In this document: positions 15,801-51,482 of the stretch, piece by piece | How the letters are laid out: each line of letters begins with the position of its first letter | How positions within the stretch are numbered: the stretch's first letter is position 1 | NCBI GenBank assembly: GCA_010093815.1 | Contig: ML996587.1 | Length of the DNA stretch: 64,000 nt | Source: Pseudovirgaria hyperparasitica | Lineage: Eukaryota | Reading direction: 5' to 3' (one strand) | Notes under the pieces: generated by a model | Told to the model about the DNA's origin: nothing | The model's database searches: none | Seen by the model: the letters and a program-made list of their open reading frames with translations, nothing else | Made by a program: the position numbers and the translations under genes

Positions 15801-18800
15801 TTTATAGGTTTTATAAACTACTATTATAAATTTATTATAGGCTTCTTATAAATTATAGTACCGCTTAATAAACTTATAGAGAATAGTAGTAAAATCCCTA
15901 TAGATAGGCGAGTATAGTATAAAGCTAAGTCGGTCGAGATATAGTTAACGCTAGAAGTATAAGATATATTCTAATTATTAAAGAATTACTTTATAACTAT
16001 ACTAATTCTTAGATTTCATTCTTAGAGGCTCACACCCTAACGGACTAAACTAGTTAATTCGGGGTAATATAGCGATCTACATACATTAAACGATAGAGTA
16101 TACCGAGTATAACAACCTCTAACACACGTACGTACATATAGCGTATAATACGCGACGATACCGACGTATAGAGACGCTATATATATACACTCGAAGGCTC
16201 TTTAACGACACGAGTATAGACTATCTCTAATAAACGCCGATACACCGACCCCCTTTTTATTAGTTACGGGTAGCCCTTTACTAATAATTATAGTAGCCTT
16301 AGGTACCGACGTACCTCGGCTTCTACCGGGTATACCCCTAATACTAGTATAGTAGAAACGGCTATATAGCGGCATATCCTAGGACGATTAAACCCCCGTC
16401 TAATAAATAACGAATAACTAAGGGTATATAACGCTATAGATAATAGAGACGGAGGGGACCCCGCCCGGGGAGACCCTCCTAGATAAGATTAACTACTAGG
16501 TAGCACGTGTAGAGAGGGAAGTTAAGAAGGGAGAAACGGCCCTCCTTAGTATCTTCCGGAACCTCGTCCGGAATATTAGAGAGCTTACCGTAGGAGTAAA
16601 ATAGACGCTAGAACTAGACCCGGAATCTAGACTAGATCGTATAGAGGCCAGCCTATAGAGGATCTAGGAGGGCCTTACCTAGGGAAAACGCCCTAGCACG
16701 TGGGCATAGGTCGCCGTATCTATAAGCGGAACAGCTATATTAGCTAAAATACTAAGGGCATCTACGGACGGGGTATATAGTATACGAGTCGCTATCTAGG
16801 ATAAAGAAGTACTTATATAAGTCTAGTAAGCGTCTCTAAAGGATATTATAAATAAGATTAATAAATAGAAAGGGATATAGTTAAATATAGTGGCCGCTAA
16901 ACTCACTCTAGGAGGTATAGTACTAACTACTACTACTAATACAGCCTAGTAGACTATCTCGTGTGACCCAAACGCGATTAACGATATCTTCCCTAGCGCG
17001 TCCGTCCGCGTAACCACGTACCCGATATAGGTATATACTATCTCTATCTAAGGACATGTTATTAGAGAAGACAATATTAAGTAAATAGAGTAATCTAACG
17101 AACCGAAGTACCCTAGGATTAAGATTATAAAGGCGTGGTAGAAGAACGTCTAAGGGATTAAGATAAAATTAAAAAAGCACTCTACTATAATAGTAGAGCT
17201 TAGGGACCCCGCTCTCGCCTATAGAATAATATAGGAGGGCTTTCTAGCCGAAGGAGAGCTACTTATAGCGGAACTATAGAATAGGGCATAGGTAATAACG
17301 TAATGCTTTAACTATTAAGGATATAGATATACTAGGTAGAGATGCTCTTAGAAGACCGCCTATAGGTGGTGTAAATAGGGCTATAATACTAAGGAATACC
17401 CTTATAAGACGTAGAGCGACGAGACGCGAGATAGGGATACCGCTAAGTACTCTAACTACGACGGGAAACACCTATTCTAGTCGGTAACGTACACGAAACG
17501 TAAGTAGGTCGTAGAATATATTAACGCGATAAAGATAAGAGAGGCGAGGTAGATATACTAAGCCATAAGGCCCTCGCTACCCTCGCTACTATCCCTAACT
17601 TTACTTATAAATCCGGTAACCACCCCCTAAAGGGGAGAGGATAACGCGTAATAGTATACTATATAGAGAAAGATAGGCCGACCCCGGGGTATACTTAAAG
17701 CCGCTACCGCGCGAGGATAATCACGCCTTAGCGCCACTAATATATAGACTCGAACTTTCCCTAGCACCTAATAAGGGTATAAGATATACTTATTATTATA
17801 TAGGCGAACGTATAATATAAACGAGAAAACTAAGCGACGCTCCTAGAAGAGATAGGAGCCGTAATAATAGCCATCTAGGAACTATATAAATACTACTAAA
17901 CTAATAAGCTAATAACACACCTAGGATACTATACTATCTACCCCATAGGCCCGGATAGAAGAGTTATGTTTTATATATATAAGTCGATCCCGCTCTTAGA
18001 ATGGTCTTATACTAAATGTAATAACCTCCGGATAATACTATATCTCTAGATAAGTATAGGGCCTCTCTATATCTATAACATCTATAATTAATAGCGATCG
18101 CTTACGCTAGATAATATACTCGAGGGCACCACGACGCCGGGATAATATATCCTCCTAGGCGACTTTAATCTCTACCATAGGTGGTAGGGAGGCCTAGCCG
18201 TCGTAAGAGAAGAACTTAGAGTAAGGGAACTATATATACGGTACTATGACTTTCTATATCTCCTTATACCCGTGGGGTAGATTACCTAGAGGAAATATAA
18301 ATAGGACGAGGACGGGTCTACGCTCGACCTCACCCTCGCCACCGAGTATATTAGCTATAGAGTATAGTACTACCGCCCGAGCCGGATATAGACGGACTCC
18401 GACTATAAATATATAGAAACCGTAATAGACGTCTCTACTCTTAACGAATAATATAGAAAATAGCTATAGAAGGACACTAATTAGGATAAATACCTAGAGG
18501 ACCTAGAATCGGCGATTCTAGACCCCTCTATAGTCGACGTATCCAACGGCCTAGCTATAGATAAGGCCGTGTAAGTCCTCCTTTAAGTATACTAAGCTAC
18601 GAGAGATAAACACGTGCTATACTAAATATATAGACCCCTAGAAGTAAGGGATATACCTTAAATACGAGAGTGTAGAAGAGACGCCCGTAGACTATATACA
18701 CGTGTATACTATATCTAGACGACTAAGGCGTAGAAAGAGTAGAAGGAAGTAGTGCGATATCGTAATAGGGCCCTCCGTAATAAACGACGAAAATAATAGC

Positions 18801-21800
18801 GCATGATTATTAATAAATATATATAGTAAGCCGTAGGGCTATAGCGTATAGTAAAGTAGGCTAAGGGTATAGACGCGCCGATACCGCCGCTACTAATACC
18901 TCCTCTAATATACTAAGAGAGGATATACTCTATAAGCCCGGAGAAGACGGAGATCTTACGTAAAGTTATATTCCCCCTCCCGGAGCTAGTAGACCTATTA
19001 GATATTAATAATACTAAATATCTAGATATAATTAATATCCCCTAAGAGGTTACCGAGGAGGATATACTCGACGCCGTTAAAGTACTCCCGAATAATAAGG
19101 TACCTAGACCGGATAGGATACCGAATAGATGCCTTAAACGTACTATACCAGCTACCCTACCGCTTATTAGTTATATATTTCAAGCATGTATTAAGAACGG
19201 ATACCACCCCTAAAGCTTCTAGGCCGTCTATACCATTATACTCCCGAAACTAGGGAAGAACCCTAGCTCCCCAAAAGGATAGAGGCTAATTACCCTCCTC
19301 TTCTATCTCGGGAAGATACTAGAGGCCACGATCGCGAAGAAGATAAGCGCCGTAGTATAGGAATATAACCTCCTTCTAGTAAACTAGAAGGCGAAGGCTA
19401 GAAGCTCCCTAATTACCGCTATCTAACATATCCTTAAAGTCGTCTAGACCGTATAGAAGTAGGGACGTGTAGTAACGCTACTCTCCCTCGATATGGCCGG
19501 CGTATTTAATAAAGTAAACTATATAAGACTCATCTATAACTTACGGAAGAGGCGTATACCCGCGTAGATTACGCGGTTTATATAGTCCTTCCTCGCTAAA
19601 AGAGTTACCTAGATATATATTCCCGGATATTAAAGTAAGTATAAGAAGACGGCTTACGGCATTCTATAAGGAAGTACTATCTCCCTAATCCTCTTCCTCT
19701 TCTTTACTATAGACCTTCTCTAGGGAATATAATATATAGAGATAGTAGGATACGTAGACGATATATACCTTCTAGCTATCGATAATAACACTAGCTAAAT
19801 ATATAGATGACTCGAATAAGACTATAGGAGATGCGTCTAATGGGCAAAGCGCTACGGAGCAAAGTTCGCCCCTAAAAAGTACTAACTTATGCACTTTATT
19901 AACCGCTATAGGAAATGGGCTACTAGGGAAGGCGAGTAACGCCCTAGAATAGACGCCTTCGACGAACCGCCGATATAAAGTATACACGCACTTAGCGTCA
20001 TGATCGATAATAAGCTTAAATAGGGACCATAGATAGCATACGCCGTTTCTAGGGCCCTCTAGATAGAAGCCGCTATACGCCAGATTACGGTCTCTATATA
20101 GGGAACCGCCTAGGATAAGGCACGCTAGCTATATATATCTATAGTACGACCCGCCTTTATGTACGGACACGAGTGCTAGTACACGGCCCTTATATAGACT
20201 AGGCGAATAAAGCTTAAATCTATATAGAACCGTATACTCCGTCTTATATTAGGCGTATATAAAGCTACTAACACGGTGCTACTACGACGCGAGATAGACG
20301 TTATAAGTATATATAACTTCTACTAGATATAGAGGGTAGTATACTTTACTAAATGATAAGCATAGAAACGTATAGAAAATGTAGAATATACCTTCGCCGC
20401 GCTACGCGCGTGAGTTAGCATATACTACTAAGTACTCTTATATATAGGCCGGAATCGACTACGGTATAAGTGCCCGATAGAAATAGACTCGAACTAAGTA
20501 GTATAAGAGATTAAGAATAATCTAGATACTCTTCTAGACTAATAGAGCCTTCGAGAGCTCGGACGAAGTATATAGTTATAGATCTAAGATAGGTAGAAAG
20601 AGATACTCCGGGCCTAGTGGGCCTCCTAGTAGGATAGATACCTAGAGTAGATCTAAGGACTATAGAAGGAGCCGAGTAAATGGATATATAAAGGGCTTAT
20701 AAAGGCCTAGGTATCTATACTCCTCTAAGCCCGAACGGGCGCTATAGAACTTCTATACTACCTCTATAAGAGAGGCGTCCCCGACGTATCTCTATAGTAT
20801 AAGGCGTGCGGCTAGAGAGGTATAATACGCTACTATCTTATAATATACCCCGATCTTTACACGTAAAGGTAGAAGCTTATCTATATAATAAGAACCTCCG
20901 ATATCGTATAATGGCTTAATAAGTACCCTAAGGACGTCGCCCGGTAGATGATTATATATCTACTACTCCTCTAATTCTAGTAGACCCGGAAATATATACT
21001 AGAAGAAACCCGGTATATATCGGAGGAAACCTAGTATATGCCGGAAGAACCCCTTGACTAATAACCTCCGCACCTATACGTGCTACCTAAGGGTAAAATA
21101 ACGGTAATATAGGCTATAGGCTAATAGGTGTACCCTATGGCTATATACTTAAGAAGAAATAAAGGTTTAACGAGATGTAATTATCGACATAAGGAAGTTT
21201 TTCCCTCTTGGGTTTCTTCTTATATAGTAGTCTAGACTAGAGGAGGCATAGGCCTGTAGAGTACTACTCTACCTAGTTATATAATATTATTATTATTATT
21301 ATACTAATTCTTAGGTATTTTAATTTTAAGAAGTATATTTAGGTTAAAACTAACGTGTTAGAATTTATAATTATTAGAATTATTAGTTAACTATATAAAG
21401 ATATAAAAGATAAGGTATAATAGTATCTAGTTACCTTCTTTTTCTATAAAATAGTAGATATAGAGATATGTTATAATATATATAACTAGAAACTACTTAT
21501 AATTATTAAGAGTTTTAAGTAATAGTAATATTATTTAGAAGGTTCTATATATTAGATTAAATTATTATTAGATTATATAAATCTATATTACTTTATATTA
21601 ACTAAGGTTCTTAATTACTAATAAGTATATTAGGCTAAGTAGATATTAATATTTAACTTTAAAATCTTATATAAAGCTAGAAGAGAGAATAAAGCTAATC
21701 CTCTATCGCGGTATAAAGATTATAAGAAATTATTATAGAATAATATAGATAGTTAGTATAATTTAGACTATACTATACTTTAGATACTATAAGACTAGTT

Positions 21801-27170: not shown

Positions 27171-27290
27171 TATTAGAAAAGATATAGCGCTTCTAAGTAC
27201 TTCTAAGTACTCCCTTAGTATTCTTTTATTCTATTATATTTATTAGATAGATCTACTTACTATCTATTCTAATAGAACGGCTTTATATAA

Positions 27291-27480
27291 TTTATACTAA
27301 GTATTCTACTTATACTAAATATTCTAGTTATACTAGATATACTAGTTATACTAAATATACTAGTTATACTAAATATACTAGTTATACTAAATATCCCGTT
27401 TATACTAAACGTCCCGTTTATACTAAATATACTAGTTATACTAAACGTACTATTTATACTAAATATATCGTTTATACTAA
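27291..27480. repeat. 18-bp minisatellite, ~11 copies
   Basis: TTATACTA recurs every 18 bp from 27292 to 27472. Least-mutated unit: TTTATACTAAACGTCCCG. Confidence 0.92.
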
Positions 27481-28308
27481 TAGAATAATTAGTACTAGTT
27501 ATTTTCTTAATACTAATTAGCTTACTAGTACTACTTATTTACTATATACTAATAACTCTTATAGAATAAATAGTATCTAGTATTTTACTTTCTCTATCTA
27601 TTCTATCTACTCTATCTATCTTAATAGAAGCTTCTTTTCTAAAGTAATATCTTTATCTAAAGTATCTCTATAACTCTATATATCTTATTATTCTAAACTA
27701 TATCTTTAGTATATTTAATTATAGTCTTTAAATTTAATACTAGAAAGATAATATATAATAGAGAGTAGAGGTTTAAAATTAATTAGACTAGGAACTTAAA
27801 TTAAATATTACTATTCTAAGCTCTCGCTAACTATATAGCTATAATAAAATATAATAGATCTTTCTTTCTTCTATCTTGAGATAGTATTCTTTATCTATTA
27901 TAAGATATTCTTATCTAGAACTACCTTTAATAACCTTTTCTTCTACTAGATACTTCCCTTTATATTTCTAGTTACTATTTTTATTCTCTCTTATTCTATC
28001 TATTTAGTCTTATAGTAGTCTATATAGTTCTCTAGCTATATACTAATATCTAACTTCTCTTAAAAGTATATACTCTTTATATATAGATTAAAGATCTAAC
28101 TTAAATATCTACTACTATCTAACTTTATTTTAATTTAAGTATTAGTTAGAGTAGATAGACTACTAGTTAAGATAGCTATAATTAGAGATAATAAGTTAGT
28201 AATAGACTTATTTATACTATATATATATATACTACTAGGGTAGCCTATAGCTAGTAGACTATAAGTAGCCTTAAATTAAAGACTACTTTTCTAGAATTCT
28301 AAAGGTAT

Positions 28309-31521: not shown

Positions 31522-32647
31522 TATTAGAACTTAGCTTTAGATATAACTATATCCGTACGTACCTTAACTACTCGGTTAGAAGATAGCGTAAAGGGTAGTA
31601 AACGGTTATATACTAGATAGATTAGTATCCCTTTATATATATACTCTTAGATTTCTACTAAAAGAGTTTAGTAGTAATTTATTCTATAATAGAATATACT
31701 CTATTATTCTATCTAACTATACTACTATCTAATAACTCTATTCTTATATTTAAATTACTCTCTATATAGTACTATAGTTAAGATAGTCTAACTAGAACTA
31801 AGAAGATTAATATAATCTATTATAGAGATAAGTAATACTATATTAAATAATAGAGATTCTCTATAATTAGTATTAAATCTAGCTATTTCTAACTAAGAAG
31901 TAGAAATAATAGACTAAATTATAGAGCTTTTGTAAAGAGTAAAGACGTAGGATAGTAGTCTAACAGTTCATAGAGAGATATAGAAATGTATTTATAGAGT
32001 AATCTTACTCTTATACGAGGTTAATTCCTAACGAGTAGAAATCGGTTTATGCGGTCTACTTATATAGTGACCTCGCTTAACTTAGCTAACTTAACCTAGC
32101 TCTAGCCACTACGTGGCTACATGGATTAGAATAGTCTATATAGATCTATTATGGTTCCCGTCCTAATAATATCCTTCTTCTTTTTATGCTTCGCCCTAAA
32201 GTACTTAAGTATATATAATCCTAAGTCTCTATAATCTATCGTATACCTATATATCTATAACTAAGTTCCTATAACGTTATAACTATCCTTAATATAGGTG
32301 AACTCGAGATTCTAGTTTACTTTTACTAGTTTATACACGCGCTTATCCCTTACTTCGTAGCTACTACCTAGAATATATAATTACTACTTTAGTTAAGTAT
32401 ATATTTAGCTTCGCTCGCCTTTGATTTTATTCTCTAGTATATCCACCTCGCTCTTAAGGTAAGTCGTTAATTCATATACTATCTTCCCTAGTTTAGGTTT
32501 AGAAGGGTCTATAGTAGTCCATTCTTATTAGAACCGGTCCTATATAACCTATTTATATTATTACGGTTACTAATTTAGCTTTATTAAACGCCGTTAAGGG
32601 TGGACGAATATTCCTTTCTTAGATCTCTAGCTAACGTATATATATAG

Positions 32648-33960
32648 ATATCTAATACTAGTCCTATCTCTAAGCCTACCTCCTCCTCTCATAAGACTCG
32701 CTCTAAAGGCATCGCCTCCTCCCCGGCCACGCTAGCTAAGAAGCCTATCTATCGCGGTAGTATAAAGGCGCGCTCTAAGTCGGAGAAGAGAGTAGCTAGG
32801 GCTACTACTACTACTACCTCTACTACTAATATAGCTACTAGTTACTCTAATCTAGGTAATTCTAGTACTAAACTTATAGATAAAGTGGTCGTAGGTTCTT
32901 CTCTCGCTCTAAAGCGCACGCTATCTACTCTACCTCCTCTAGAGGATAAAGAAGATCTTATTATAGACGATGATTACGAGCCCTCGCGCTTACCCATGCC
33001 GCCGCCTCGCCGCTCTTTCTTCCGGTCTAATATAGACTAATTTAGTTACTCTAGGTTCTTTTAGGACCTTAATATTCGCTCTAAACCCTAGCCTACTAAT
33101 AATAAGGCCTAGGTCGCCGAGGATACTAAACGTAGTCACGGTTTACGCTATAGGAAAACGGCGAACTATAGTTCGATATACTATAAGTATATTAAGGGCT
33201 ATACGGCCGGCTCTAAATATCTCTTTCGCTCTAACTCTAGTATTAGCTACTACTCTACTAACCGCGACGGGCCTATACGCTCTATCTTTACTCTACCTAC
33301 CCGCTACCGCCGCTATACCATAACTAGTAAGACTTATCTATAGGTAAGTATAATAGGCTATCTTAATCTAGTGTAATCTAAAGTGGTCCGCGCTAATATA
33401 TTCTTAGGTTCCTATATATATATAAGATATATATAACGATCTTCGCGTCCGCGAGACCCTTAGAGGTCCTTATAGCTACCTACCTACTATATAGAGGGAG
33501 TTTAGGGAGTACTATAAGCTCTTCCTAGAGGTTATTAAAGTATAAGTTATAAGCACGTTAATTATTTTTAACATCTATTGATTTTTCTAGCCGCCGCGAG
33601 ATCCCTAGCGCCTAGACTATCTATTCTAGGGAGTCTATTCTAGCTATAGAGGCCGTAGAGAGAATTCGCTCTATTCCCCCCTATCTATCTCGCGCTACTA
33701 ATAGATCTTATAAGAGGTCTACTATTTCTCCCTCTAAGTCGCCTTATAAGAGGATATATATTCTCTTCTAGATTATTCTAGATCGTGTTAGCTAACTTTA
33801 GACCTAGTCGCTACGCTCTAGCGCTTAAGGCTCTTCCCTCTAGGCTCTAACGGATCGAGTTATTATTTTAGAGGCTAAGGTCGTCGTCCTCCGCCGCTAT
33901 ATTATATAGTTAGAGAGGACTATACTAGAGGTTAGAACGGATAATAAGATAGAGGAGTAG
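32648..33960 (+). pseudogene. Antisense spliced accessory gene of Gypsy B (Zn2Cys6-like motif, C-terminal coiled coil), RIP-mutated
   Basis: Stop-poor frame from 32648 (S/T/P/K/R-rich). Tyr codons read as former Cys give CxxC-x9-C...CRRC-x6-C-L-Q. Intron 33344-33407 (GTAAGT...GCTAAT...TTAG). Later branch-like GCTAAC at ~33791. Terminal segment ALTDRVIILEAKVVVLRR.IIQLER. Confidence 0.68.
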
Positions 33961-34075
33961 CTCTATGGTTCTAGCTCTATAGGTTTAGCTCTATGTATTA
34001 GCTCTATGGTCTAGCTCTATATATTAGCTCTATGCCTAGCTCTATATGTTAGCTCTATGCCTGGCTCTATATATT
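33958..34075. repeat. Degenerate 12-14-bp tandem repeat, ~9 copies, core TAGCTCTAT
   Basis: Directly visible, starting at the inferred stop of the antisense gene. Confidence 0.85.
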
Positions 34076-37000
34076 CTAGATCTACTATAGATGGTACGCG
34101 CCGGCTCTATTTGCCTAGCTTTTATCCGTTTTAGTCCTTTTTAGACCGTTTAGATATCTATTAGCTAGTTTCTAGTAATTTAATTCTTAACTTAACGATA
34201 TTATATGTGCGCTCGCTTAGCTTATAACTATCGGTTTCTATATTCTAATTTTCCTTAAGTTACCTAAGTATGGGTACCATATATAAATTAGTTTATCTCT
34301 ATAAATTCTATTAGAGTACCCGAACTAGTAGCCTAGTAGTTATTAGTTTAGGTACTCTAACCTTTTATATTTCGTGTTAAGAGTTTAATTCTATGGTAGG
34401 GTACCTTTTTTTAGGTTCTTAGTCCTATGTTTTTCTCGTATATAATAGTCTATATTAGTCTATTCTAGACTCTTCTATGTTATTCTATTATAGTATGTCA
34501 TATCGCGTTTCTAAAATAGTTATTTACGCTTTCTTCGCGTCTAGTAACTATGCGACGCTTAAATTATAGGGCTACTATATAGAGTTTTCCTAGTACGCGT
34601 CTAGATTTCCTAGTTTAGTACTTCGTTCTCTACGGTATTCTTCTTCTTTTTATAACGACCGCGACGTCGCTATACTTACATTAATAATACACTATTCTAT
34701 ATCTTTTACTTATACGTAGCTATTATAGAACTTAAGATATATACTACTAGTTCCTAGGTATCCTCGTCCTTAGTATAGTCCTTCTAACGGATTCTATATT
34801 TCTAAATACCGTCTTTATTAATCCTATATTCGATAATATAGTCTACTTCGAACACGTCTAGTCTATCTTAGGGTATAATAGAGTATAACTATATATTCGT
34901 GCGGCTATACACGTTAGGTCGAAATCTTTTGAGTAGTAAGACGTGGAACACGTTATAGATTCTTATATCGCTTCCTAAGTCGAGCTCGTAGACTCTTATA
35001 CCGATACGACGTTTGATTCGGAAGGGACTAGCCATTTTATAATCGAGCTTCTTATTTACTCGCGACGTTCGTATGTTACGGATGTTAAGAAGGACCTTGT
35101 CGCCCTCCTCGTACGTCTAATCCTTGGCTAATCTATTATAGTACTTCGTATATAAGTCGTTTACTTATTAGATTATAGCGCGATAGTTACGTGCGGTTTC
35201 GAAGATTTTAATTGCTAATTTCTAAGCGTGGACGTTTACGTCTGTTATTCGATTAAATTAGACCGTCTAAGGCTTAAAACCTATCCTTAGACTACGTCCG
35301 AGGTTCGCCTAGAAAGGTATAATATCTATCGTACTATAACGACTATTATTATATACGAACTCTACTATACTTAGTAGGGAGGCCTAGTCGTCCTACTCGA
35401 AATTATAGAATGCACGTAGGTAGGCCTCGAGCGTCTAGTTCTATCGCTCTATCTAGCTATCCGTCTAAGGATAAAATACTATAGACATGTTTCTATTTAT
35501 ACTTACTATTTCGTAGAATAATATCTAGAATTTGGACGTGAAGGTACTTCCTCGGTCTATAACGATCCTTTTTAGTATACTATGGACCTTAATAATCTCG
35601 TTCTAGAATACCTACGCTAGTTCTTTAGATGTAATCGTCTTCTATACCAGGATATACCTAGATATCTTTATAAGTCTATCCACGATAATAAGAATAGAAT
35701 TATAACTTATTCTAAGTATCTCGCTTAGAGGTAAGTTAACTATAAAGTCTATAGTAACGTCTTTCTATATAAAGAGGGGGGCTAAAAGAGGCTATAAATT
35801 CCTATATAGCTTATACCTAGGGGCCTTCGTTCTTTAATAAATCGGATAAGTAGCTATCTATTCTTTAACGTACTTAGATATATCTTTCTAAAAATAGTAC
35901 TAACGAATTAAGCTTAGGGTACGTATATACCTAAAGTATTCTACTAGGTTAGCATTATAGTATCGGCTAACTACGTTAAATTATGCGTTACCTATCGGTA
36001 TATAATACTTTCTATTATAGTAAAGTAAGCCGTCTACAAAGGTCTACTTATAGTCTACTTTAGTCTATAATAATCTATCTTACTATATTTTATATAACTT
36101 TAAAACTATCGGGTCTATCTTCTATAGATCTATAATTAACTAGGTAAGGTTAATTAGATATTCACGCTAGGTATTATCGCCCTTCCCAATAGCGCTAATA
36201 AACGGCCTACTAGGGACTTCGGTACCGCGTCTTTGGTTACCGGCTTTAGTCTTAGAGATTTAATTACCGGCATTAACGTTAGCATCTCGCTAATCGCCTA
36301 ATAACTTAAAATCCAACCTCGTCCTTAAGAGTTAGGCCTATAGCTACTCTAGGACCCTATAGCTACTATAATCCTAGGCGCCTTCTTTATAGTTAGGTCT
36401 TCTTAATATTCTATTAGCTAGGTTTATACTTCTAGGTTAATAGTAGATTATAAAGTAAAAGTTCGTAAGCTACTTAGCCTATTAGACCTATCGACGGTTT
36501 AAAACTATTATACTTATAAACCCCTTTAAGTTATAGTAATTAGTTAGTAACTTGACGTTATATATAGTACCTTTAAGATAATATTACTACTATTTAAACG
36601 ACTCTACTATTACTAGTAGCTCTTAGTTATAGATAGTATATCTAGTCTTAATATCGACCATTTTACGTAAGAAGAACGTAACTAGATACCATTAGACCTT
36701 TTTAGACTTAGTTAGTCTAGGCTAGGAGAGAATATCTAAGATTATAAATCCTAACGCGTCGGTTTTAACGCGGATAGGTTTAGTTAGGTCGAAGTATACT
36801 AGTAATAGGGTAGTTATAAATACCTCTTTGATTTTCTCGAAGGAGGCCCTTTCGCCTTCCGATAATTCTATAGACTATGATTTAATATTACGCTATTTCT
36901 ATCTACCGCGGACCGTAATAGACGAATCTATAGTAGTAGTACGCGCGTTAAGCGGTACTACTAGCCGGGAAAAATGCTTAACGAATTTTCGGTAGTAATT

Positions 37001-40000
37001 AGCGAATCTAATAAAGACACGTATATCTTGAACTAATTTTAGTTTAGGCTAGTCCACGATAGTAGTAACTCTATCTCTTTCTATGGTTATACCTTAATTA
37101 GTAATAATAAAGCTAAGGAAGTTAACGTGGTCCTAGTGGAACTCGTATTTAGATAGCTTAATATATAGCTTGTGTTTTTCTAGCCTATCTAGGACTACGC
37201 GTACGTGCTAGATGTATTCTTCTTTATTATTAGAGAAGATAAGGATGTTATCGAGGTATACGATGCACGTTATATCGAGTAGGCCTACTAGCGCGTTATT
37301 AATATACGCTTAGAAGGTTCCTAGCGCGTTAGTTAGTCTAAAAGGGACTACTATATACTCGAAGTATCTATAACGGGTCCTAAACGCCGTTTTCTACTTA
37401 TCGCCCTTCTTAATACGTAGGCGGTAGTAGGCGTTATATAGATCGAGCTTAGTAAAGATCGTTGCGCGCCCTAGTCTATTAATAGACTCGGAGATAAGAG
37501 GTAGTAGGTAATAATTCTTTCGCGTAATATTATTTAGACTATAGTAGTTAATACATAGACGGAGACTCCTATCCTTCTTCTTTATAAATAGAATTAGAGC
37601 TCTAGCTAGGGATATACTAGACCTAATCTATCCTCGCGTAAGGTTCTTTTCAATATATTCTCGGAGGACCTATAGCTCGGGTTCTAATAGAGGGTAGATG
37701 GGTCCGTATAGGGGTTATTAACCGTCTTCGAGGTTAATAGTAAGGTCGATAGGTTAGTATTAAGGTAATTCGGACGAGTCAATCGCTAACGCGATATATT
37801 AGTATATTTTATACTAATATAGTAGGTTTTCATCTACTTTAATACTAAGCTCTCTATTTTAAGTAAGTAAGAGGACGTAGATAGCGGAGATTACCTTTTC
37901 GTAGTCCTTCTAGAATTATTCGTCGTCGACTAGCTATACTAGGTTCCATTATAGTAGGTATATACGCTAGCTAGCTGTTTTCTAGATAAAGTCTAGTTTC
38001 GGGTTATGTTTTTCGAGCTATGGTATACTAAGGATTATATTAAAGGGACTATCTACCACGATAAAGGTTAAGTAGTAGGGTTTCCACTTCCCCCCGCTAT
38101 TCTAGATACTATATTTAATGGTATAGATACCCTATAATTTAATAGGACTATTAATACTATAGAAGGTAGCATCTATTAGTACTTAAATATCGACGTTAAG
38201 TTCTTATACTCGTTAAGTTAATATAACGTTAGTAGCTAAACCGCTATTAAGTATTATGGTCTAATGTTATCCACGAGGGACCTCGATAGGCCTAGCCTAT
38301 AGTTTAATATACTAGTTAGCTAGTTATCCCTCTATTTTAGTTACGCCTATAAGTTATAAGGGTTCCTTATAGATAGTTAGTTTTTTATATCGTATACCGG
38401 GTAGTTAGGCGCGATATATCCTAGCTACTAGTACTTATAGTATGTAACTAACTTAGTATCTATATTAGTATTCGGTAGTTTCCCTAAGCGGCACTCGGGT
38501 ACTATATAGTCTATCCTACCATAGGTATAGTAGGTAACTTTAGGTTATTTATACGAGTCGTTTCTCGCGTCTCGATATATCGACTAGTAGAAAGATCCGC
38601 GTTACGGGCCTTATCTTCTTAAGTTCATAGAGTGGTAGCGTCTACGAGGTGTTCCGCGTAATCTATTACTAAACCGGTCCTCTTTAGATGATTTCGTATT
38701 AGATTGGATTAATAGGGATAGTCATGCGTCTATATAACGTTAGTTATTCATTATACGCTAATGTCGTTCTACGAGATTCGCGAGTGCCTAAAGATTAGTA
38801 GAGATAGACGTTATAAGGTTAATACGTTTCTTTACGCTCGGGTTAAGGGACCTTTTAAAGTCGTCGTATTATTAAACCATATAATCTTTCTCGGCTTCTC
38901 TCTAAAGAGGTCGGAGGTATTTAAGGAGTTATAACGGGGATTATCTCTCTTACTATTAAGTCTTAAAGATATAGCTCTAAGTCTATTTACGTTACTCGGC
39001 TCTATCGCCGAAGTATTAAAGAAGGAATTTAGTAAACGTGTCCTAGTTATACGCATCCTTAGGGTGTTTAATTCGATATACCATCTAACGTTTAGATAGC
39101 GTTAGGTCTAGGTAGTTCTATATAAACCTAATCTTATTACTATCGTTTATAAATAGGTAGAAGAATCGGCTATACTAGTAAGTCTATTCGTAAAAGCTCC
39201 TTCTAGTTTTACTATTAAAGTAAGGTGGTTTCTTAGGCCGAGGTAACTAGGATAGTAATAGACTTAGTTAGACTATTTCGGCTTAAGTTAGTCTATATTA
39301 GTATAGGTTAGTTACTACTAGTACTAAAGCGCGTAGTGCGGCTTCGAGTCTAGCGGTTTATCCTTATACTTCGTCGAGTTCACGAAGTTACTACTTAAGC
39401 TAAGCCTAACGCTACCTCTCCGTGTATAGCTTAGTATATATATTATTATAAGGCGTGGTTAACGTTAGTTAGTTCTAACGAATTAATTCATTAACGTTAA
39501 TAGGGTCTAGTCTTATAGTAAGGATAGGTCTAGTATAGTGTAAACTAGACCGCGATGGAGTATAATAGACTCCTTCCTTATTATCTAGGTAATCTTCTAC
39601 GGTTATACGGAATACCGTACTAGTTATTAGTACGATAGCCTATAGAGTATACCTATTGGTAGAGGTAGTTATAGGGAGACTATTCTCTTCGTTTAGATTT
39701 AGAGAGAGTCTCTTATATAAGGTAGTACCACGGGTATTATAGCGCGTAGTAGGAGCTATCTCTATAAGCTACCGTCGTGCTATATAGAGAGGAATTAAAA
39801 TATAAAGAGTAAAGACGTAGGATAGTAGTCTAATAGTTTATAGAGAGATATAGGCATATATTTATAGAGTAATCTTACTCTTATACGAGGTTGATTCCTA
39901 ACGAGTAGGAATCGGTTTATACGGTCCACTTATATAGTAACCTCGCTTAACTTAGCTAACTTAACCTAGCTCTGGCCACTACGTGGCTACATAGATTAGA

Positions 40001-41633
40001 ATGGTCCATATAGGTCTATTATAGTTCCCGTCCTAACAGCTTTCTAATAAAGAAATAGTAGATATACTAAGTAACTTCTAATAATATAAAGTTAGATAAT
40101 AAGTTATAACGGAGCTATATAAGGTATTATAATAAACTATTACTAAACTATAGAAGTATATTACTAATTAAGTCTAGAAGATTTAGATTCTTAAAGAATA
40201 GACTAAATATATAAAACTCCTTATAAAGAGATAAGAACTTAAGAAGTCTCTTAAAGAACTATACTAAATAATAGTAGATAAATAACTTTCTATACTAATT
40301 TAGATAGAATTAGTTTACCTACTACTAGAGTTATAATAATCTACTATAATTCTAGCTACTTCATTACTAACTTACTCTATTCTATCTCTAGATATACTAA
40401 AATCTAAAGATCTAACTATATTTATAGAGAAGAACTAAAAGAAGTAGAAAGACTAGAAGAGAAACTATAAAAAGTACTTCCTTAATAACCCTCTACTCTT
40501 TTCTACTAAAGTATAATATATTTTATTTAGAGAATAATACCTAGACTTATAATTCTATAATTAATAGAATAGATAGAAAGAAGTATAGCTACTATCTATA
40601 ATAACCTAGGAATATTTAGCTATATTTATACTAAATACCCTTAGAATAGATAGAGAATATAAAAGAAAGATACTATTAGAGTTAAGAAGTATAGTATAAT
40701 AACTAAACTAGATATCTACTTAACTACTATAATATCTATAAAACCTATAGAATAATATCTCTACGCTATAGAAAAATATTTATATATTCTAGTTTTATAA
40801 AGTACTACTTCTATTAATCTATAAAAGACTAGAAATAGTACTATTAAGTTTTAACTATCTATATAAACTAGAGAAGAAAGCTAATAAATACTACTATATT
40901 CTTAAGAAATATAGCTCTCTAGATAAAACTAATAAACTCTATATAGATTAGAAATAAGGTTAATTAAATATATTTAATTAAGAGTAATCTTACTATAATT
41001 AGTACTAGAAGAGTATAAATTAGAGTAGAAACGTATTAAGAGAATACTAAAATAATTAAGATAGTACTTCTTAATATAGAAAAGAATAAAATATAGACTT
41101 AAATATAATATCTATTATAAAATAGTAGGATTATAGTATACTTTATTACTATAAGTATAGAGAAATAGAATATATTTTATCTAACTATAAGAATCTAAAA
41201 AAAGAATAGACTAGTATATAAGATCTAACTATATTCTTAGCTAAATTATATATACTTAGAAGAAGCTATAGTATCTTCTAGTAAGTAAAGATCTAATATT
41301 ACTAAAAATATTATTACCTATAGTAAATAGTAATAAAACTATATAGACTCTTATAGATACTAGTATAGAAGATAACTATATTTTATTAATTCTCGTAAAG
41401 AAGTATAGATTATTATATAACCTTAGTAAAGTTAGCCGAACTATTATAGTTAATAAATATAAAGTTAGAACTTTAGATAAAGCTATAATAAATTATAAAG
41501 TTTATAACTTAAATATAATAAAATAGTAGATATCTAATAAATTTATTATAGCTAATATTAGCTAATAGAATATAATTCTAGGGATACCTTAGCTTAAACG
41601 CCTAAACTCTATCCTTGATTTTTAGAAGGAGAT

Positions 41634-44600
41634 TGTAAGAATAGGGTTATTAGATAGTAGTATAGTTAGATAGAATAATGGGGTGTATTCTATCATAGAA
41701 CGAATTACTACCGAACCTTTTTAGTAGGAATCTAAGAGTATATATATAAAGGGACGCCGATCTATCTAGCACGTGACTGTTTACCGCCCTTCACGTTACC
41801 TCCTAACTCTATTAGCTAAGGTACATATAGATTGGGTCCTACCTAAGACTAAGTTCTAATAATTATCCCTTCCCTCTAGAAAGCTACTCTTAGCGACCTA
41901 GATCGTTATCTATCTCTATATCCCTATTCTAAGTCTCGTAAGACCTTAGTCGTTCTCTATGCTTCGTCTTAGATACTTACTAATATTCACCGATCTAAGA
42001 TTTATATAAGTATTTTCCTAATAAACTAGATTTTATCTATCTTAACTTCTTACATAGGTAAGATTACCTAATTAGGCCTAGCGTATCACGTAATATGATT
42101 AGGTAAGCCCGGGTACTACCTATATTAAAATCTTTTCTTAGAAATATTCCTTTCTTTAAAAAACTTCTTAACTCTTTATAGAGTTTTTTAGATTATTAGA
42201 TATATTACCCAATCCTTATAGACATAGATTTATATAGATTTACTATAATTTAGTGCGATTTACGTAATTTACTAATTTTCGTACCGTCCTTAGCTAGTAA
42301 TAATATAATTCGTAATAATCTATATAAATTAATAATAATCTTAATATAGTTTCCCGAAATCTCGACGCTCTAAAGTAATTAGTACGGAAATAGGCGCCTT
42401 CGAATAATCCCTATCTTGTATACGTTACCGATATGTTAAAAGCTATTAATCTACTCTAACCTAGGCCGGGCTCTAATAATCTAGCTATATATTATTATAG
42501 TTATTACTTTCCGTTATATATTACTTATAGCGGTACTAAATCTATAATATATAGTACTTATATAACTAAGAAGCGTTATTACTTATAGGTATTTAAGTAA
42601 GTTTAAAGAACTTTACGTAGATTTACTTATATTAGTATAGATTACTACTAGGCCTCTAGTAACCCCTACTAATAAGAAGCATAGTACTACCAATCACAAC
42701 GCCTTAGAGAAGGCTTTCTACGAGCTATATATCTAAGGTAAGGGTTACGCCTAGGAGTACGATTCTAATAAGATCCGTAAGGATTTATCGGAATCTACTA
42801 TAGCTATTATTACCGCGATTACTAGGTAATATCGTTTTTCTTAAATTATTATAGATTCTTACTAATATATATTAATCTCTATAATAGTGCTAAAATCTCT
42901 ACTACTTTGGACTTCTTTCTATATACTAGCGATATTAGAATTTCTAGAAAAGGTTCTAGTAAAAAGGCTAAGGTTCCTTCCTCGCGCGTGCTAAAGAGCC
43001 GTAAATTTAGGAAAGATAGCTCTAATCTAGAAGTTTCTATACTAAAGGTATGTGGTTCTATACCGATCGTTAAATCTTTTCGCTAATTTATGTAATTCTT
43101 AGCGTGCCTACGCCGGTCCGTCCCTCTCCGTCCCGGGTCCCGCCGCTCTATAGGTTTCTATAGAGGAGTTTATAGCTATAAGACGCGCTATATAGAATTT
43201 ATAGCGTTAGAACGAAAGGCTAGAGACTTATATTATAAAGCTCTATACTATGCTAAATAAGAACTAGCGGAAGGAATTAGATATAACTATCGCGGTAATT
43301 AGTACTTCTACTCCTACTCTAACTTAATTAGTTTAGATCTATATAGATTAGTACTAATATATCTCTTTTATCTAGCGTTTTTAGTTTTTCGGTTTTAATT
43401 TTAAAGCGATCTTACTTCTTCTAGATAGATTAGTGCGAGTTTATATAGATCTATATAGATCTTTATATTTTCTTTTAGCTTTCTTAATTTTATCTTTCTT
43501 TAATAATAACTTCTTTAATCTCTTTAGTGATCTATACCGATCTATACCGATTAGCACCGATTTTCGATGTCCATTTCTCTTAGTAAATCATTTTTCTAAG
43601 TCTCTTTTTTAGTTAAATTTTTTAAAGTTCTAAGTTTAAACTTTCTAAGGAAGTTCCTTAATTCCTTAGAATATTTTAAAGATCTATATCTCTTTTACCT
43701 TCTTCCTTTTAGGCGGCCGTCCTCGGCGCTAAACTATACTAAAAAACGTTGAATCGCCGTACTTTAGTATAATTCTCTACGATTCCGCGGCTTCCTTTGC
43801 TAATCGCTACTTATATACTAATATCGCTGCTTTACTAATATTTATTATAGGTTTCTAAGTATCTTTATTAGAATTATATCCTTTCTAATGAATTTTATAT
43901 AGCCACGTGCTATCTTTAGCGCGTTACTAGCTAAGTATCTACTTAACTTCGTAGATATCTATACCTTCTTACGTAACTACTTTATATAGTATCTATTCGG
44001 AACGATCCGGTAATAATAAGGCATGAAATAGCTCGAGAAGCGTAATATAGAATATATTATATATCTTTAACGTAGGAGGGAGTTACAACTCGTACGCCTG
44101 GTTATTAATTATACGAGTAATCTTGTATAGACCTATTATTATATAGTTAAGCTTCTTCTTTGGCCTAATACTATAAATATTCTTACTATTTAGTAAAACT
44201 TTATCCCTAACATTAAAGATTATGGGTTTTCTACCCTTATTATAGTATGATTTACTATAATTCGTAGTATCTTATAGTAACTTTATAACGCTTCTTTACG
44301 TTTAGAATAGTTCTATAGTAATTTCTATTACTTTAACGTTAGGTTATTCTACTTTAAACTAAGTCCCTAAGAACTACGTATTATAGTTCTAACCGAAGTT
44401 TACTTCGAACGGACTTACGTAGGTTAACGCATGTCGGCTATTATTATACGCGAATTCCGCGATATAGACTAACCTTATCTAGTTATCCTACTTATAGTTA
44501 TAATATATACGTAAATACGCCTCGACTATCTAATTCTACCACTCTATCTATCTATCTATTTATAGGTGGAACGTAGTACTAAGTTTCCGCTTAATTCCTA

Positions 44601-47600
44601 GCGTATAGTAGAAATCCTTCTAAAATTTAGACGTTATCTACGGACCTCTATCCGAAACTATACCGTTTAGTATACTATAGAGCCGGACTACGTCACGGAG
44701 TAGTATATCTATAAGATCTAGTACTTAGATCGTCTTCCTTATAGGGATATAGTATAATATCTTTATAAATCTATCTAGAACTACGAGTAAACTATCATAA
44801 ATATACCTAGAATACTTACTTAGGGGTAGATCTATAATGAAATCCATCGATAATTCCTTCTATACCTCCTTTAGTATAGGTAATGGCCTTAATTTACTAT
44901 ATAGTAAGTGTCTATATACTTTCGTATACTGGTAAACGTTATACGTTTTTACGTAGTCTTTTATATATTTATAAAGACCCGGCTAGTTATACGTCCTTCG
45001 GATTAAATCGACCGTCCTTATAACGCTAAAGTACCCTACTAACGCGTAATCGTACTATTCCCTTAAAATATTAATTCGTAAGCCGCCTTCCGGCATATAG
45101 AGTCGGCCTTAGAAGTAGATCGCGTCTAATCGTCGTTCCTACCTTAATAACCATAGCGGATCTATAGCACTTCCTTTTATACTTATGACTTTCTTTACTA
45201 ATATATTAGAATTCTAGGTAGATTTAATTAAGTCTTTGAGGGTTTTCTTAGTTTCTTAGATGTTTATTTAAATTACTTAATACCCGCTCTAATTCCCGTG
45301 GAGAATCGCCGAAAGTGTCCTAGCTTCTAGTATTCTATTAGATAACTAGTCTTATAGTATCTAAAGTATAGTATAGTCTAACTTGCACTAACTATCTGCG
45401 TTATTCTATGACGATTTCTTATAATCTTTACGCCGCGATAGAGGATTAGCTTTATTCTCTCTTCTAGCTTTATATAAGATTTTAAAGTTAAATATTAATA
45501 TCTACTAAGCCTAATATACTTATTGGCGATTAAGGACCTTGGTCGATATAAAGTAACGTAGATTTACGTAATCCGATAATAATTCGATCTAATATATAGA
45601 GTCTTCTAAATAATATCGCTATTACTTAAAACTCTTAATAATTATAAGTAGTTTCTAGTCGTGCGTGTTATAACGCGTCTCTATATCCGCCATTTTATAA
45701 GAAAAGAAAGCGACCGGGTACTATTATACCTTATCTTTCGTATCTTTATACGGTTAACTAATAATTCTAGTAATTACGAATTCTAACGCGTTAGTTTCGA
45801 CCTAAATATACTTCTTAGAATCGAAATACCTAAGAATCGGCGTAGTTATAAAGTAATTCTTTAACGATTGGAACGTATCTCGCGCTTCCGGCGTTAACTA
45901 TATCTCGACCGACTTAGCTTTACGCTATACTCGCCTACCTATAGGGATTTTACCGCTATTCTCTATAAGTTTATTAAGCGACGCCGTAATTCGTAAGAAG
46001 TCTATAATAAATTTACGATAATAGTTTACGAAACCTATGAATATTCTAATTTAACGTATAGTAGTAGGTTCTAGCCATTCCATGATGGTCTTTATACGCT
46101 CCGGCTCTATTTTTAGGCCGCCATATATCATAATAAAGCCAAGAAACCCAACTTCTTATTAGTAAAACTCGCATTTAGATAATTTTATATAGAGTTTATA
46201 CTACCTTAGACGATTTAGTACCGATTTCACGTGTTCTTTATAATCCTTTATACTATCGGAGTAAATTAGTATATTATCGAGATAAACTACGTAAATTATA
46301 TTAAGTAATCCTACGAGTATAGTATTAATATATCCTTAAAACGCTCCTAGCGTATTTATTAGCCTGAATGGCATAATAGTATACTTAAAATAACTATATC
46401 TAGTCCGAAATGCGGTTTTCTACTTATCTCCGTAACGAATTCGAAGTTAGTAATATATATCTTATAAATCTAGCTTCGTAAAGTACTTTACCTTCGTTAA
46501 TTAGTCTAAAGATTTACTAACTAGCGGTAATAGGTAACGATTCTTCTTAGTCACCGTATTTAGTGCCTGATAGTCAACGTATAGATATAAACTTCTATCT
46601 TTCTTCTTTATAAAGAGAATAGGTACGCCGGCCGATAACGTACTATAACGTATCTAGTCTCTTTCGAGGTATTCTTTAATATATTTACAAAGAACTTCGA
46701 GTTCTAGTCTCGAAAGTAGGTAAAGTAGGCTATAAGGGACGTCTACTCCCTCTTCGAGCTCGATCTTTAGCTTATATAGCCCGTGATCGGGGAGAAGTAA
46801 TATATCTCCTACCGAAAACATATCCGTATACTACGAATATACGTCGGGTAGCGTGTCTTCGCCCTAATTATTACTATCGTCCTTATCTTTATTAATAATT
46901 AATAAGGACGTAAGATAGATTAGTAATAATCGGGTCCGCACGGCGAGGTTCCATGCCTCCTTACTAATAGTTATAACTTACTAGTATAATTTACCACGGT
47001 GTCGTCGGAACATTAATGTCTCCTTCTAAAAATCGAGGATAGGGTTTAGGCGTCTAAGCTAAGGTATCCCTAGAATTATATTCTATTAGCTAATATTAGC
47101 CACGATAAATTTATTAGATATCTACTATTTTATTATCTTTAAGTTATAAACTTCGTAATTTATTATAGCTTTACCTAAAGTTCTAACTTTATGTCCATTA
47201 ACTATAATAGTTTAGCTAACTTTACCGAGATCGTACGATAATCTACACTCCTTTATAAGAATCGACGAAATATAGTTATCTTCTATACTAGTATCCACGA
47301 GGGCCTATATAGTTTTATTACTATTTACTATGGGTAACGATACTTTTAGTAATATTAGGTCTTTACTCGCTAGAAGGCGCTACGGCTCCTCCTAAGTATA
47401 TATAATTTAGCTAAGGATATAGTTAGATCTCATGTACTAGCCTATTCTTTTTTTAGATTCTTATAGTTAGGTAAAATATATTCTATTTCTCTATACTTAT
47501 AGTAATGAAGTACGCTATAATCCTACTATTTTATAATAGGCGTTATATTTAAGCCTATGCCTTATCCTTTTCCGCGTTAAGAAGCACCGCCTCGATTATT

Positions 47601-49017
47601 TTAGTGTCCTCTTAACGCGTTTCTACCCTGATTTACGCTCTTCTAGCGCTAATCGCGGTAAGGTTACTCTTAATCGAACGTATTTAATCGACCTCGTTTC
47701 TAACCCGTGTAGGGTTCGTCGGTTTTACCTAGAGAGCCACGTTCCTTAAGGATGCGGTAGTATTTATTAGCTTTCTTCTCTAATTTATATAGATAGTTAA
47801 AACTTAATAATACTATTCCTAGTCTTTCGCGGATTAACGGAAGTAGTACTTCGCGAAACTAGAATATACGAATATTTTTCTATAGCGTAGGGATATTATT
47901 CTATAGGTTTTAGAGATATTATAGTAGTTAAGTAGATGTCTAGTTCGGTCGTTATACCACGCTTCTTAACTTAGATAGTGCCTTTCTTTCACGTTCTCTA
48001 TCCGTTCCGAGGGTGTTTAGTATAAATATAGCTAAATGTTCCTAGGTTATCGTAGATAGTAGCTATACTTCCTTCTATCTATCCTATTAATTATAGGATT
48101 ATAAGCCTAGATATCGTTCTCCAAACGAAATGCGTTATACTTTAGTAGAAAAGAGTAGAGGGTTATCGAGGAAGTACTTTTCGTAGTCTCTCTTCTAGTC
48201 TTTCTACTTCTTTTAGTTCTTCCCTATAAATATAGTCGGGTCTTTAGATTTCGGTATACCTAGGGAAGGAGTAGGGTAAATCGGTAACGAAGCGGCCGGG
48301 TATACGGTAGATTATTATAACTCTAATGGTAGGTAAACTAATTCCGCCTGAATTAGTATAGGAAGTCGTCTACCTACTATCGTTCGGCGTAGTTCTTTAA
48401 GAGACTCCTTAAGTTCTTATCTCTTTATAAGGAGTTTCGCGCATTCTACCTATTCTTTAAGGGTTTAAATCTCTCGAGCCTAATTCGCGACGTATTCCTA
48501 AAGTTCGGCGATAGTTTATTATAATACCTTACGTGGCTCTACCACGACTTATTATCCGGCTTTATATTATTAGAAGTTACTCGGCGTATCTACCATTTCT
48601 TCGTCTAAAAGCTCCGTGATTTAGTCTAATATTTCCACTTCTCGGTTAGAAACGGCCGGGATTAATACTAATTATAGAGGATCCCTATTATTTAATATAG
48701 TATTACTTATCCCTATAGTGGATCGTGTCGACCTTCTCGGTTCTAGTTAGACTATCTTAACTATAGTACTATATAGGGAGTAATTCGAATATAAGAATAG
48801 GGTTATTAGATAGTAGTATAGTTAGATAGAATAATAGGGTGTATTCTATTATAGAACGAATTACTACCAAACCTTTTCGGTAGGAATCCGAGAGTATATA
48901 CATAAAGGGACGCCGATCTATCTAGTACGTGACTATTTACCGCCCTTCACGTCACCTTCTAACCCTGTTAGCTAAGGTATATGTAGGTTGGGTCCTACCT
49001 AAGGCTAAGTCCTAACA
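41634..49017 (-). mobile_element. Complete Ty3/Gypsy chromovirus family A (7384 bp; LTRs 41634-41861 and 48790-49017), inserted in reverse into another family A copy
   Basis: TSD GAGAT (41629-41633 and 49018-49022), TG...CA termini and 228-bp LTRs. PPT next to 41862. RT V-Y-L-D-N-I-L-I-Y-S at ~46258-46290. Chromodomain Y-E-V...L-Y-K-I-H-W-K-G-Y...D-T-W at ~43845-43955. Confidence 0.96.
42294..43327 (+). pseudogene. Antisense multi-exon accessory gene of Gypsy A (Zn2Cys6-like motif, basic linker, C-terminal coiled coil), RIP-mutated
   Basis: Three phase-consistent introns: 42589-42640, 42826-42887 (GTAATA...TACTAAT...TAG) and 43048-43102 (GTATGT...GCTAAT...TAG). Exon 42888-43047 has no stop. 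The last exon reads ...SIEEFIAIRRAIQNLQRQNERLE.... The 5' boundary is approximate. Confidence 0.72.
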
Positions 49018-49502: not shown

Positions 49503-51482
49503 TTATCTATTACTACTAGTTAGTAAATCTTTAGACTAATTAATAAAGGTAAAGTACTTTATAAAGCTAGATTTATAAGATATATATTACTAGCTTTAAA
49601 TTTATTATAGAGATAAGTAGAAAACTATATTTCGGACTAGATATAGTTACTTTAAGTATACTATTATACTATTTAGACTAATAAATATACTAGAAGCGTT
49701 TTAAGAATATATTAATACTATACTTATAGAATTGGCCAGGTGGCGTAGTGGTAGTGTGCTACGTTACTAGAAGCGTTTATTATCTAACGTCGTGGGTTCG
49801 AATCCTATAACGGCCACCTTTTTATACACTAGTTTTCGCACGCTCTATTAAAAAGTGTGCGGGGCTAAGCGAGCACATAACGTGAAGGTTACCGTTACAT
49901 GACTACTTAGTCCTAAGCGACCATTAGGTAATGTGAAAATAACTATACCATCATTATATAATAAGAATTACCTAATATAGCTACCTACTAAGCTACCTTA
50001 AGTAGTAGAGCGACGCCTAGAGTAGCTAGACCCATAACTAGCTTAGCTCGAATCATAGAATTTTCACTATATACTAGGGCCTTATCTACCCTAATCCGGC
50101 TTAGCTCGTGCTTACTCCGGCTCGGTAACCACGAAATAGACGGTAATACGTAATTTAGTATCCCGCCTACCTATAGATGATTATATAGCCCCGAAGAATA
50201 ATTTCCGAATTCGGCCTAGCTAGGGTTAGTGCTAAGGCATGGACCTATTAGATATATACCCCCTCCGGCATTAGTCATCTTAATTAATGACTACTACCTA
50301 GCGTAAAGCTATATTCCCATGGATAGGAAAAAACACGGTAACACAGGAATAAAAGATTAGGCCTAGCCTAGCGACCTATCTAATCATAAGAAAGGTAATA
50401 CCTACTATAGTTGGTTAGGGCGTTATTAAGAGCCGGTACTAATATAGTAATAAAAAGCCTAATATAAGGATAAGAAGTAAGTTTATCNNNNNNNNNNTTA
50501 TCTATTACTACTAGTTAGTAAATCTTTAGACTAATTAATAAAGGTAAAGTACTTTATAAAGCTAGATTTATAAGATATATATTACTAGCTTTAAATTTAT
50601 TATAGAGATAAGTAGAAAACTATATTTCGGACTAGATATAGTTACTTTAAGTATACTATTATACTATTTAGACTAATAAATATACTAGAAGCGTTTTAAG
50701 AATATATTAATACTATACTTATAGAATTGGCCAGGTGGCGTAGTGGTAGTGTGCTACGTTACTAGAAGCGTTTATTATCTAACGTCGTGGGTTCGAATCC
50801 TATAACGGCCACCTTTTTATACACTAGTTTTCGCACGCTCTATTAAAAAGTGTGCGGGGCTAAGCGAGCACATAACGTGAAGGTTACCGTTACATGACTA
50901 CTTAGTCCTAAGCGACCATTAGGTAATGTGAAAATAACTATACCATCATTATATAATAAGAATTACCTAATATAGCTACCTACTAAGCTACCTTAAGTAG
51001 TAGAGCGACGCCTAGAGTAGCTAGACCCATAACTAGCTTAGCTCGAATCATAGAATTTTCACTATATACTAGGGCCTTATCTACCCTAATCCGGCTTAGC
51101 TCGTGCTTACTCCGGCTCGGTAACCACGAAATAGACGGTAATACGTAATTTAGTATCCCGCCTACCTATAGATGATTATATAGCCCCGAAGAATAATTTC
51201 CGAATTCGGCCTAGCTAGGGTTAGTGCTAAGGCATGGACCTATTAGATATATACCCCCTCCGGCATTAGTCATCTTAATTAATGACTACTACCTAGCGTA
51301 AAGCTATATTCCCATGGATAGGAAAAAACACGGTAACACAGGAATAAAAGATTAGGCCTAGCCTAGCGACCTATCTAATCATAAGAAAGGTAATACCTAC
51401 TATAGTTGGTTAGGGCGTTATTAAGAGCCGGTACTAATATAGTAATAAAAAGCCTAATATAAGGATAAGAAGTAAGTTTATC
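49503..51482. other. Artefactual ~985-bp direct duplication across a 10-N gap (49503-50487 = 50498-51482)
   Basis: The copies look identical at offset 995 and each ends exactly at the gap 50488-50497. Confidence 0.88.

Follow-up and report, generated by a model that had tools for sequence, protein, structure and literature searches.

Spliced antisense genes with a cysteine-cluster layout and a shared intron position in Ty3/Gypsy elements of Pseudovirgaria hyperparasitica and environmental relatives

The antisense gene brtn of the element Boty/BcGypsy1 was reportedly described by Zhao et al. in 2011. In the accessible portions of its descriptions, brtn lies antisense in the interval between pol and the 3′ LTR in Botrytis cinerea and Sclerotinia, and its function is given as unknown (PMC7264820, 10.1101/2021.04.13.439636, PMC4227169, PMC5987419). 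Compared by these descriptions only, it resembles the gene reported here in being an extra antisense gene, located in the same interval of a fungal chromodomain Ty3/Gypsy element and present in most copies; it differs in that the same portions mention neither a zinc cluster nor an intron position. The antisense aORFs of the plant elements Grande, RIRE2 and Retand, as presented in the accessible part of PMC7264820, share position, orientation, retention in most copies and a proposed nuclear regulatory role, but belong to another host kingdom and to other protein types, with no evidence of homology; for antisense extra ORFs of LTR elements at large, this part of the source states no known function. 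For Colletotrichum, effector genes lying antisense within Ccret elements were considered and not borne out; the accessible part of PMC5576322 describes element fragments in effector UTRs. Among literature titles and abstract openings (subscription papers being outside the scope), no zinc-cluster antisense gene family was found for fungal Ty3/Gypsy elements. With brtn, a gene of this orientation and location is already known; what is added here is the cysteine-cluster layout, a conserved intron and two intact examples.

The stretch analysed (the window) comprised 64,000 nt of Pseudovirgaria hyperparasitica (GCA_010093815.1, contig ML996587.1), with the focus on positions 32648–33960. It is an AT-rich nest of fungal repeats eroded by RIP, and a TpA/ApT ratio of ~1.9 points to heavy host silencing of two Ty3/Gypsy families, A and B. 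The family B element (31931–40037, minus strand) is inserted within a copy of family A and flanked by a perfect 5-bp target-site duplication. Its 3′ LTR (31931–32167) and 5′ LTR (39801–40037) are 93% identical, with TG…CA ends, some of them RIP-altered, and a purine tract adjoins the 3′ LTR on the minus strand. The pol of B (34700–37798, minus strand) covers RT, RNase H, the integrase region and SH3, its frame being interrupted by RIP stops. In A and B alike, gag-pol lies on the minus strand and pol follows the order RT–RNase H–integrase (Pfam: RVT_1, RNase H, SH3_Tf2-1); the integrase region of B aligns with that of A and with intact pols. The chromodomain PF00385 is carried by 11 of 12 intact relatives and gave no direct match on the RIP-damaged A and B frames. 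By its sequence, family B is classed as a fungal chromodomain-type Ty3/Gypsy element, the chromodomain-like pol end being judged from PF00385 on the intact relatives.

The genome itself contains at least 40 near-full matches to the accessory region of B and at least 40 to that of A, and many stops were present in each of the 36 pol candidates scored. The B copies comprise the window type, B1, and a second subfamily, B2, whose LTRs and accessory region share ~77% identity with those of B1. Several B copies (L078–L081, L072, L112, L113) looked mosaic, with B2-type ends and B1-type introns and exon 2, which suggests recombination between the subfamilies.

Other features were recorded in the same window. 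An island at 10176–11968 had escaped RIP (GC 0.51) and holds two long open frames; in the first, a 9-bp repeat (His-Asp-Glu) is perfect and the V-ATPase a-subunit is matched weakly, below the cut-off (E 6e-5). The island may be a gene of the host, or a piece of one, inside the repeat nest. A non-LTR (LINE) element that is less eroded occupies 16029–21313, its endonuclease and RT being on the plus strand, and has an inverted relative at 57292–62575. A degenerate 9/18-bp tandem array of ~300 bp occupies 27255–27560, and a 985-bp perfect tandem duplication (49503–51482, 100% identical) lies amid RIP-diverged DNA, being either recent or an assembly artefact.

The antisense gene of B sits between pol and the 3′ LTR, on the strand opposite to gag-pol, and was read in three exons on the plus strand. 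Exon 1 (32648–33343) encodes a basic Ser/Thr-rich N-terminus and then a cysteine domain ending in CxxC-x6-C-x-x. Intron 1 (33344–33407, 64 nt, phase 0) is followed by exon 2 (33408–33541), starting with Val-Pro (Ile-Pro in the intact relatives described below); intron 2 (33542–33590, 49 nt, phase 2), whose donor is RIP-hit in the window copy, is followed by exon 3 (33591–33960) with a basic stretch, a heptad segment, a short acidic end and the stop. A tandem array of 12–13 bp units (33958–34089, plus strand) begins at this stop codon and varies in length from copy to copy. An earlier note on this DNA had read, from the letters, a B antisense frame with the cysteine motif followed by GTAAGT; this was recovered, with the motif at 33305–33343 and the donor at 33344. 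The motif-adjacent intron of that note likewise stands, while the second B intron had been missed and the present analysis assigns three introns to A.

The antisense gene was present at every locus mapped (30 B1, 25 B2 and 30 A). Its start codon, ATG at 32648, is retained in 9/30 B1 and 5/25 B2 copies; in the B2 sister copy L083, exon 1 runs uninterrupted for 229 codons. Donor 1 reads GTAAGT or GTGAGT in 24/30 B1 and 16/25 B2 copies; the AG of the intron 1 acceptor is kept in all 30 B1 copies. At intron 2, the donor survives as GTAAGT in 3/30 B1 and as GTRAGT in 5/25 B2 copies, and the acceptor as CAG in 5/25 B2 copies. This intron is the most B1/B2-diverged region tested (9 transversions over 49 sites); its splice ends are nonetheless kept. 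Between B1 and B2, exons differ in net length by 6 and 3 nt, and intron 2 by 1 nt. Fixed stops were counted against the other plus-strand frames and gave, for exon 1, 3 vs 7/30 in B1 and 0 vs 4/30 in B2; for exon 2, 2 vs 1/5 and 1 vs 1/3; and for exon 3, 6 vs 8/11 and 5 vs 2/11, respectively. An equal or lower count is found in another plus-strand frame for exon 2 of B, exon 3 of B2 and exon 4 of A. Transversions are informative on selection because RIP cannot produce them: 33 of the 69 fixed between B1 and B2 fall on third positions (p = 0.009), compared with 14 of 19 in pol. Exon divergence (2–5%, heptad part 15%) was not clearly under the non-coding value of 3–7%. Judging from these patterns, the B antisense frame was under selection, looser than that on pol. 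Heptad periodicity marks the last exon of A, B1 and B2: its score was reached by 6, 2 and 1 per 1000 shuffles in three B copies and by 5 per 1000 in A, so that the heptad-like last exon, proposed earlier for both families, is upheld (1–6/1000). The B gene is a real spliced antisense accessory gene killed by RIP, and the window copy does nothing today.

For comparison, the full-length family A element (41636–49015, minus strand) was used. Its antisense gene (42346–43327, plus strand) also lies between pol and the 3′ LTR, in agreement with the common orientation and location claimed for the two families, and its exons were read in this analysis as 42346–42588, 42641–42825, 42888–43047 and 43103–43327. 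The A motif was recovered at 42550–42588 (with more copies on the minus strand at 3689–3729 and 55578–55618), but the donor behind it is not consensus: 28 of 30 copies have GTATTT and not GTRAGT. An alternative donor, GTAAGT at 42597, was set aside, as GC stands there in one less-mutated copy and the frame fits 42589. A first intron of 52 nt accounts for the shift to the frame with the fewest fixed stops (1 vs 3 and 5). The later introns have the donors GTAAYA and GTATRT, with CAG acceptors surviving in 1/30 and 2/30 copies. The second intron is in phase 2 in both families; after the first, A resumes with Ile-Thr and B with Val-Pro.

Different LTRs and no obvious DNA similarity of the accessory regions had been stated for A and B, and this was confirmed (blastn, best E 0.09). 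Significant profile similarity of the two proteins, to which the earlier note had also looked, was absent, hhalign giving probabilities of 0.28% and 0.07% on profiles that are shallow and RIP-damaged. Quick integrase trees, built on 51 of 86 rows and on 24 of those 51 with RIP-touched codons masked, placed A and B as sisters (SH-aLRT 97–99), although residual RIP may pull the two together. On the basis of layout, intron position, location and sister integrases, and not of alignment, the A and B antisense genes are probably homologous.

Surviving cysteine codons were counted in natural copies. Among 65 matches to the B motif, obtained with a pattern that mildly favours copies with the terminal Cys, Cys stands at the first position in 4, at the third in 5 and at the middle one in none. 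By offset, 25 B2 copies have Cys at −42 (4), −39 (3), −19 (1), −18 (1), 0 (4) and +10 (4), and none at +3 or −29 (0/25 each); 30 A copies have it at −46 (10), −43 (5), −18 (1), −16 (10), +3 (4) and +10 (2), and none at offset 0, the first motif position (0/30). Cys in less-mutated copies was therefore found at two of three motif positions per family (first and third in B, second and third in A) and not at the remaining one. Calibration on pol, where majority-stop sites without a surviving sense codon numbered 14/21 in B1, 17/31 in A and 2/25 in B2, makes the absent Cys unremarkable for A and for B1, and mildly adverse for B2. Common to A and B is a stretched layout, in which an upstream CxxC is followed by a long loop, then by one or two Cys, ~16 residues and CxxC-x6-C. 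The Tyr/Cys-degenerate motif plus GT turned up 4 times as background over 128,000 strand-bases (~0.05 per 1.5 kb); this motif alone is weak, and the weight rests on the surviving Cys codons, the B donor consensus and the intact relatives.

These relatives were obtained from metagenomes by a scan with the integrase region, in which the best 80 of 498 related loci were taken and 51 had at least 1.2 kb beyond pol. Of these 51 scorable loci, 2 have the six-Cys pattern: L118 (rank 1 of 80) and L123 (rank 6); shuffles produced it 2 times in 1020. Both encode, antisense, CxxC-x10/11-C-x7/9-CxxC-x6/7-C-x-x, then a phase-0 intron, then Ile-Pro; their donors (GTAGGT and GTGAGT) lie two codons past the last Cys, the position as in B and A. 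The six Cys in the order CxxC…C…CxxC…C are complete in this pair, with one motif position never Cys in B and one in A. Acidic tails were seen in L118 and L122, and heptads were not significant in the intact L118 and L123 genes (499 and 138 of 1000 shuffles). Elsewhere in the carriers' clade, inspection by eye showed that L122 (2820–3049, minus strand) and L131 (2957–3854, minus strand) each have, beyond pol, the 3′ end of a spliced antisense ORF, cut by the contig end; the end in L131 is long, acidic/Pro-rich and unlike that of L118. In L119, of the same clade, the open pol end runs to the LTR, apparently without such a gene (by eye). The intact carriers form a separate clade in the quick integrase trees (97–99), which is not grouped with A and B in the best tree, a single clade not being rejected (p-AU 0.27). 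In hhalign, A or B against the intact pair stayed within the overall range of 0.07–0.28%. The old, vertically kept module envisaged in the earlier note is supported in part: A, B and two intact elements share the intron position, and the integrases of A and B are sisters (SH-aLRT 97–99). Vertical retention finds no support in the best tree, in which A and B are not grouped with the carriers (a single clade not being rejected), nor in L119.

The encoded protein resembles Gal4-type Zn(II)2Cys6 domains (PF00172) in the CxxC…C…CxxC-x6/7-C layout and in the helical segments after it; it differs in the first loop, which has 6 residues in Zn2Cys6 factors, 10–11 in L118/L123 and ~20 or more in A and B. 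Pfam gave no Zn_clus (PF00172) or DUF3716 (PF12511) match for A, B or L123, the best value being that of L118 (E 0.97), and no Pfam family matched the antisense genes above the cut-off. As a host control, 30 of 110 Zn2Cys6 hits, from a scan that required a 6-residue first loop, were examined; among the 29 with an uninterrupted cluster, GT stood at the equivalent position in 2 and a consensus donor in none. An intron two codons past the last Cys is thus a trait of the element genes that is not typical of hosts.

In the ESM Atlas, the B2 and L123 domains both had three look-alike ascomycete clusters of the same size and length, all scoring <0.9, which are taken as a lead only. The Atlas neighbours of both domains include unnamed ascomycete clusters and those of DUF3716 (PF12511) and DUF8257/DUF8414 (score 0.78–0.79), DUF3716 being annotated on 28% of the members of its cluster. 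The antisense genes themselves had no hmmscan match to DUF3716, and a family search of the genome found other loci only (L258–L262; G000 C2, C36, C59, C15, C84). Three of these five exceed the cut-off; they are not RIP-eroded and have no pol match within 1.5 kb. A protein search with natural B copies returned 0 hits among 1755 candidates, and against 1.84 billion representatives the B copies had one match, repetitive and spurious. For the intact pair there were 0 hits among 180 candidates and none in the P. hyperparasitica genome; the viral contigs searched contained no relatives, and a PDB sequence search gave no relevant match. The AlphaFold model, from a two-row alignment, reached a pLDDT of 50, too low for use.

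Proteins that combine a six-Cys cluster with a dimer helix and an acidic tail are established, from the Gal4 type, as transcription factors. The six-Cys cluster, basic stretches, coiled coil and acidic tails of the present genes fit a Gal4-like dimeric regulator, and the best explanation, to which we give an even chance, is that the protein is a dimeric, Zn2Cys6-like regulator by which the element would control its own transcription. What the natural copies display directly is the gene structure, Cys at most positions, the heptads and an intron position common to intact elements. This Ty3/Gypsy lineage would have carried the accessory gene antisense between pol and the 3′ LTR until RIP killed the window copy. 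The promoter would most likely lie within the 3′ LTR or next to it, and splicing of the transcript would yield ~400 residues in B; the intron would survive reverse transcription because it is antisense to the genomic RNA. The product would have a Zn2Cys6-like cysteine cluster with lengthened loops, presumably zinc-binding, then a helical segment and, at the C-terminus, a coiled coil, and would most likely act as a nuclear, dimeric, DNA-binding protein. The constant linkage of gene and element suggests the element itself as target, so that the protein may bind its own LTR or spacer and thereby set, in either direction, the timing of element transcription.

Plant VANC proteins are an analogue for a different role, in which the protein would bind the element, for example at the tandem array by the stop codon, and block heterochromatin or DNA methylation. 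Such an anti-silencing factor would agree with the variable array abutting the 3′ end of the B gene and with the heavy host silencing of A and B; we nevertheless consider it unlikely, as no comparable array lies at the A stop codon, the searches brought up no resemblance to a known anti-silencer and all 36 scored pol candidates of the genome carry stops. A cofactor acting after transcription, in RNA export, particle assembly or integration targeting, and binding element RNA or proteins and not DNA, would account for the linkage to gag-pol at all loci seen, and nuclear roles have been suggested for plant antisense aORFs in the accessible part of PMC7264820; the resemblance of the six-Cys spacing to DNA-binding clusters and the apparent lack of such a gene beside the open pol end of L119 make this quite improbable.

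It is also conceivable that the antisense RNA itself matters, or that a captured host zinc-cluster gene is carried as a passenger, perhaps acquired independently by A and B. The absence of A/B sequence similarity, selection that is weak relative to pol and a chance rate of the degenerate motif of ~5% per 1.5 kb would be compatible with this. We regard it as distinctly unlikely, given the gene at all 30 B1, 25 B2 and 30 A loci mapped, the similarly lengthened loops of A and B, and an intron whose codon position is identical in four lineages, against a consensus donor in 0/29 host Zn2Cys6 genes with a 6-residue first loop; moreover, ordinary RNA-level capture would not yield an intron-bearing antisense gene (accessible part of PMC7264820). 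That there is no gene at all, RIP having created TAY codons and TAG|GT by chance, could appeal to the 4 background motif matches in the window, but is scarcely credible in view of the 229 open codons of L083 exon 1, the surviving ATG, Cys, Gln and donor in natural copies, the intron 2 splice ends kept despite divergence and the third-position bias; it is largely refuted for B, and less firmly for the first intron of A.

With the dimeric regulator as the preferred reading, the cysteine-cluster layout and the two intact examples make the DNA target, and switching-on versus shielding from silencing, testable. As a marker, the conserved intron persists after protein similarity has faded and allows the family to be followed beyond the reach of alignments. 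Tentatively, and with more doubt than confidence, ascomycete chromoviruses might share one ancient, fast-evolving Zn2Cys6-derived regulator family, marked by the conserved intron right after the cluster. If this is true, chromoviruses would be 'complex' retroelements with a trans-acting transcription or anti-silencing factor of their own, possibly acting on host genes near LTRs.
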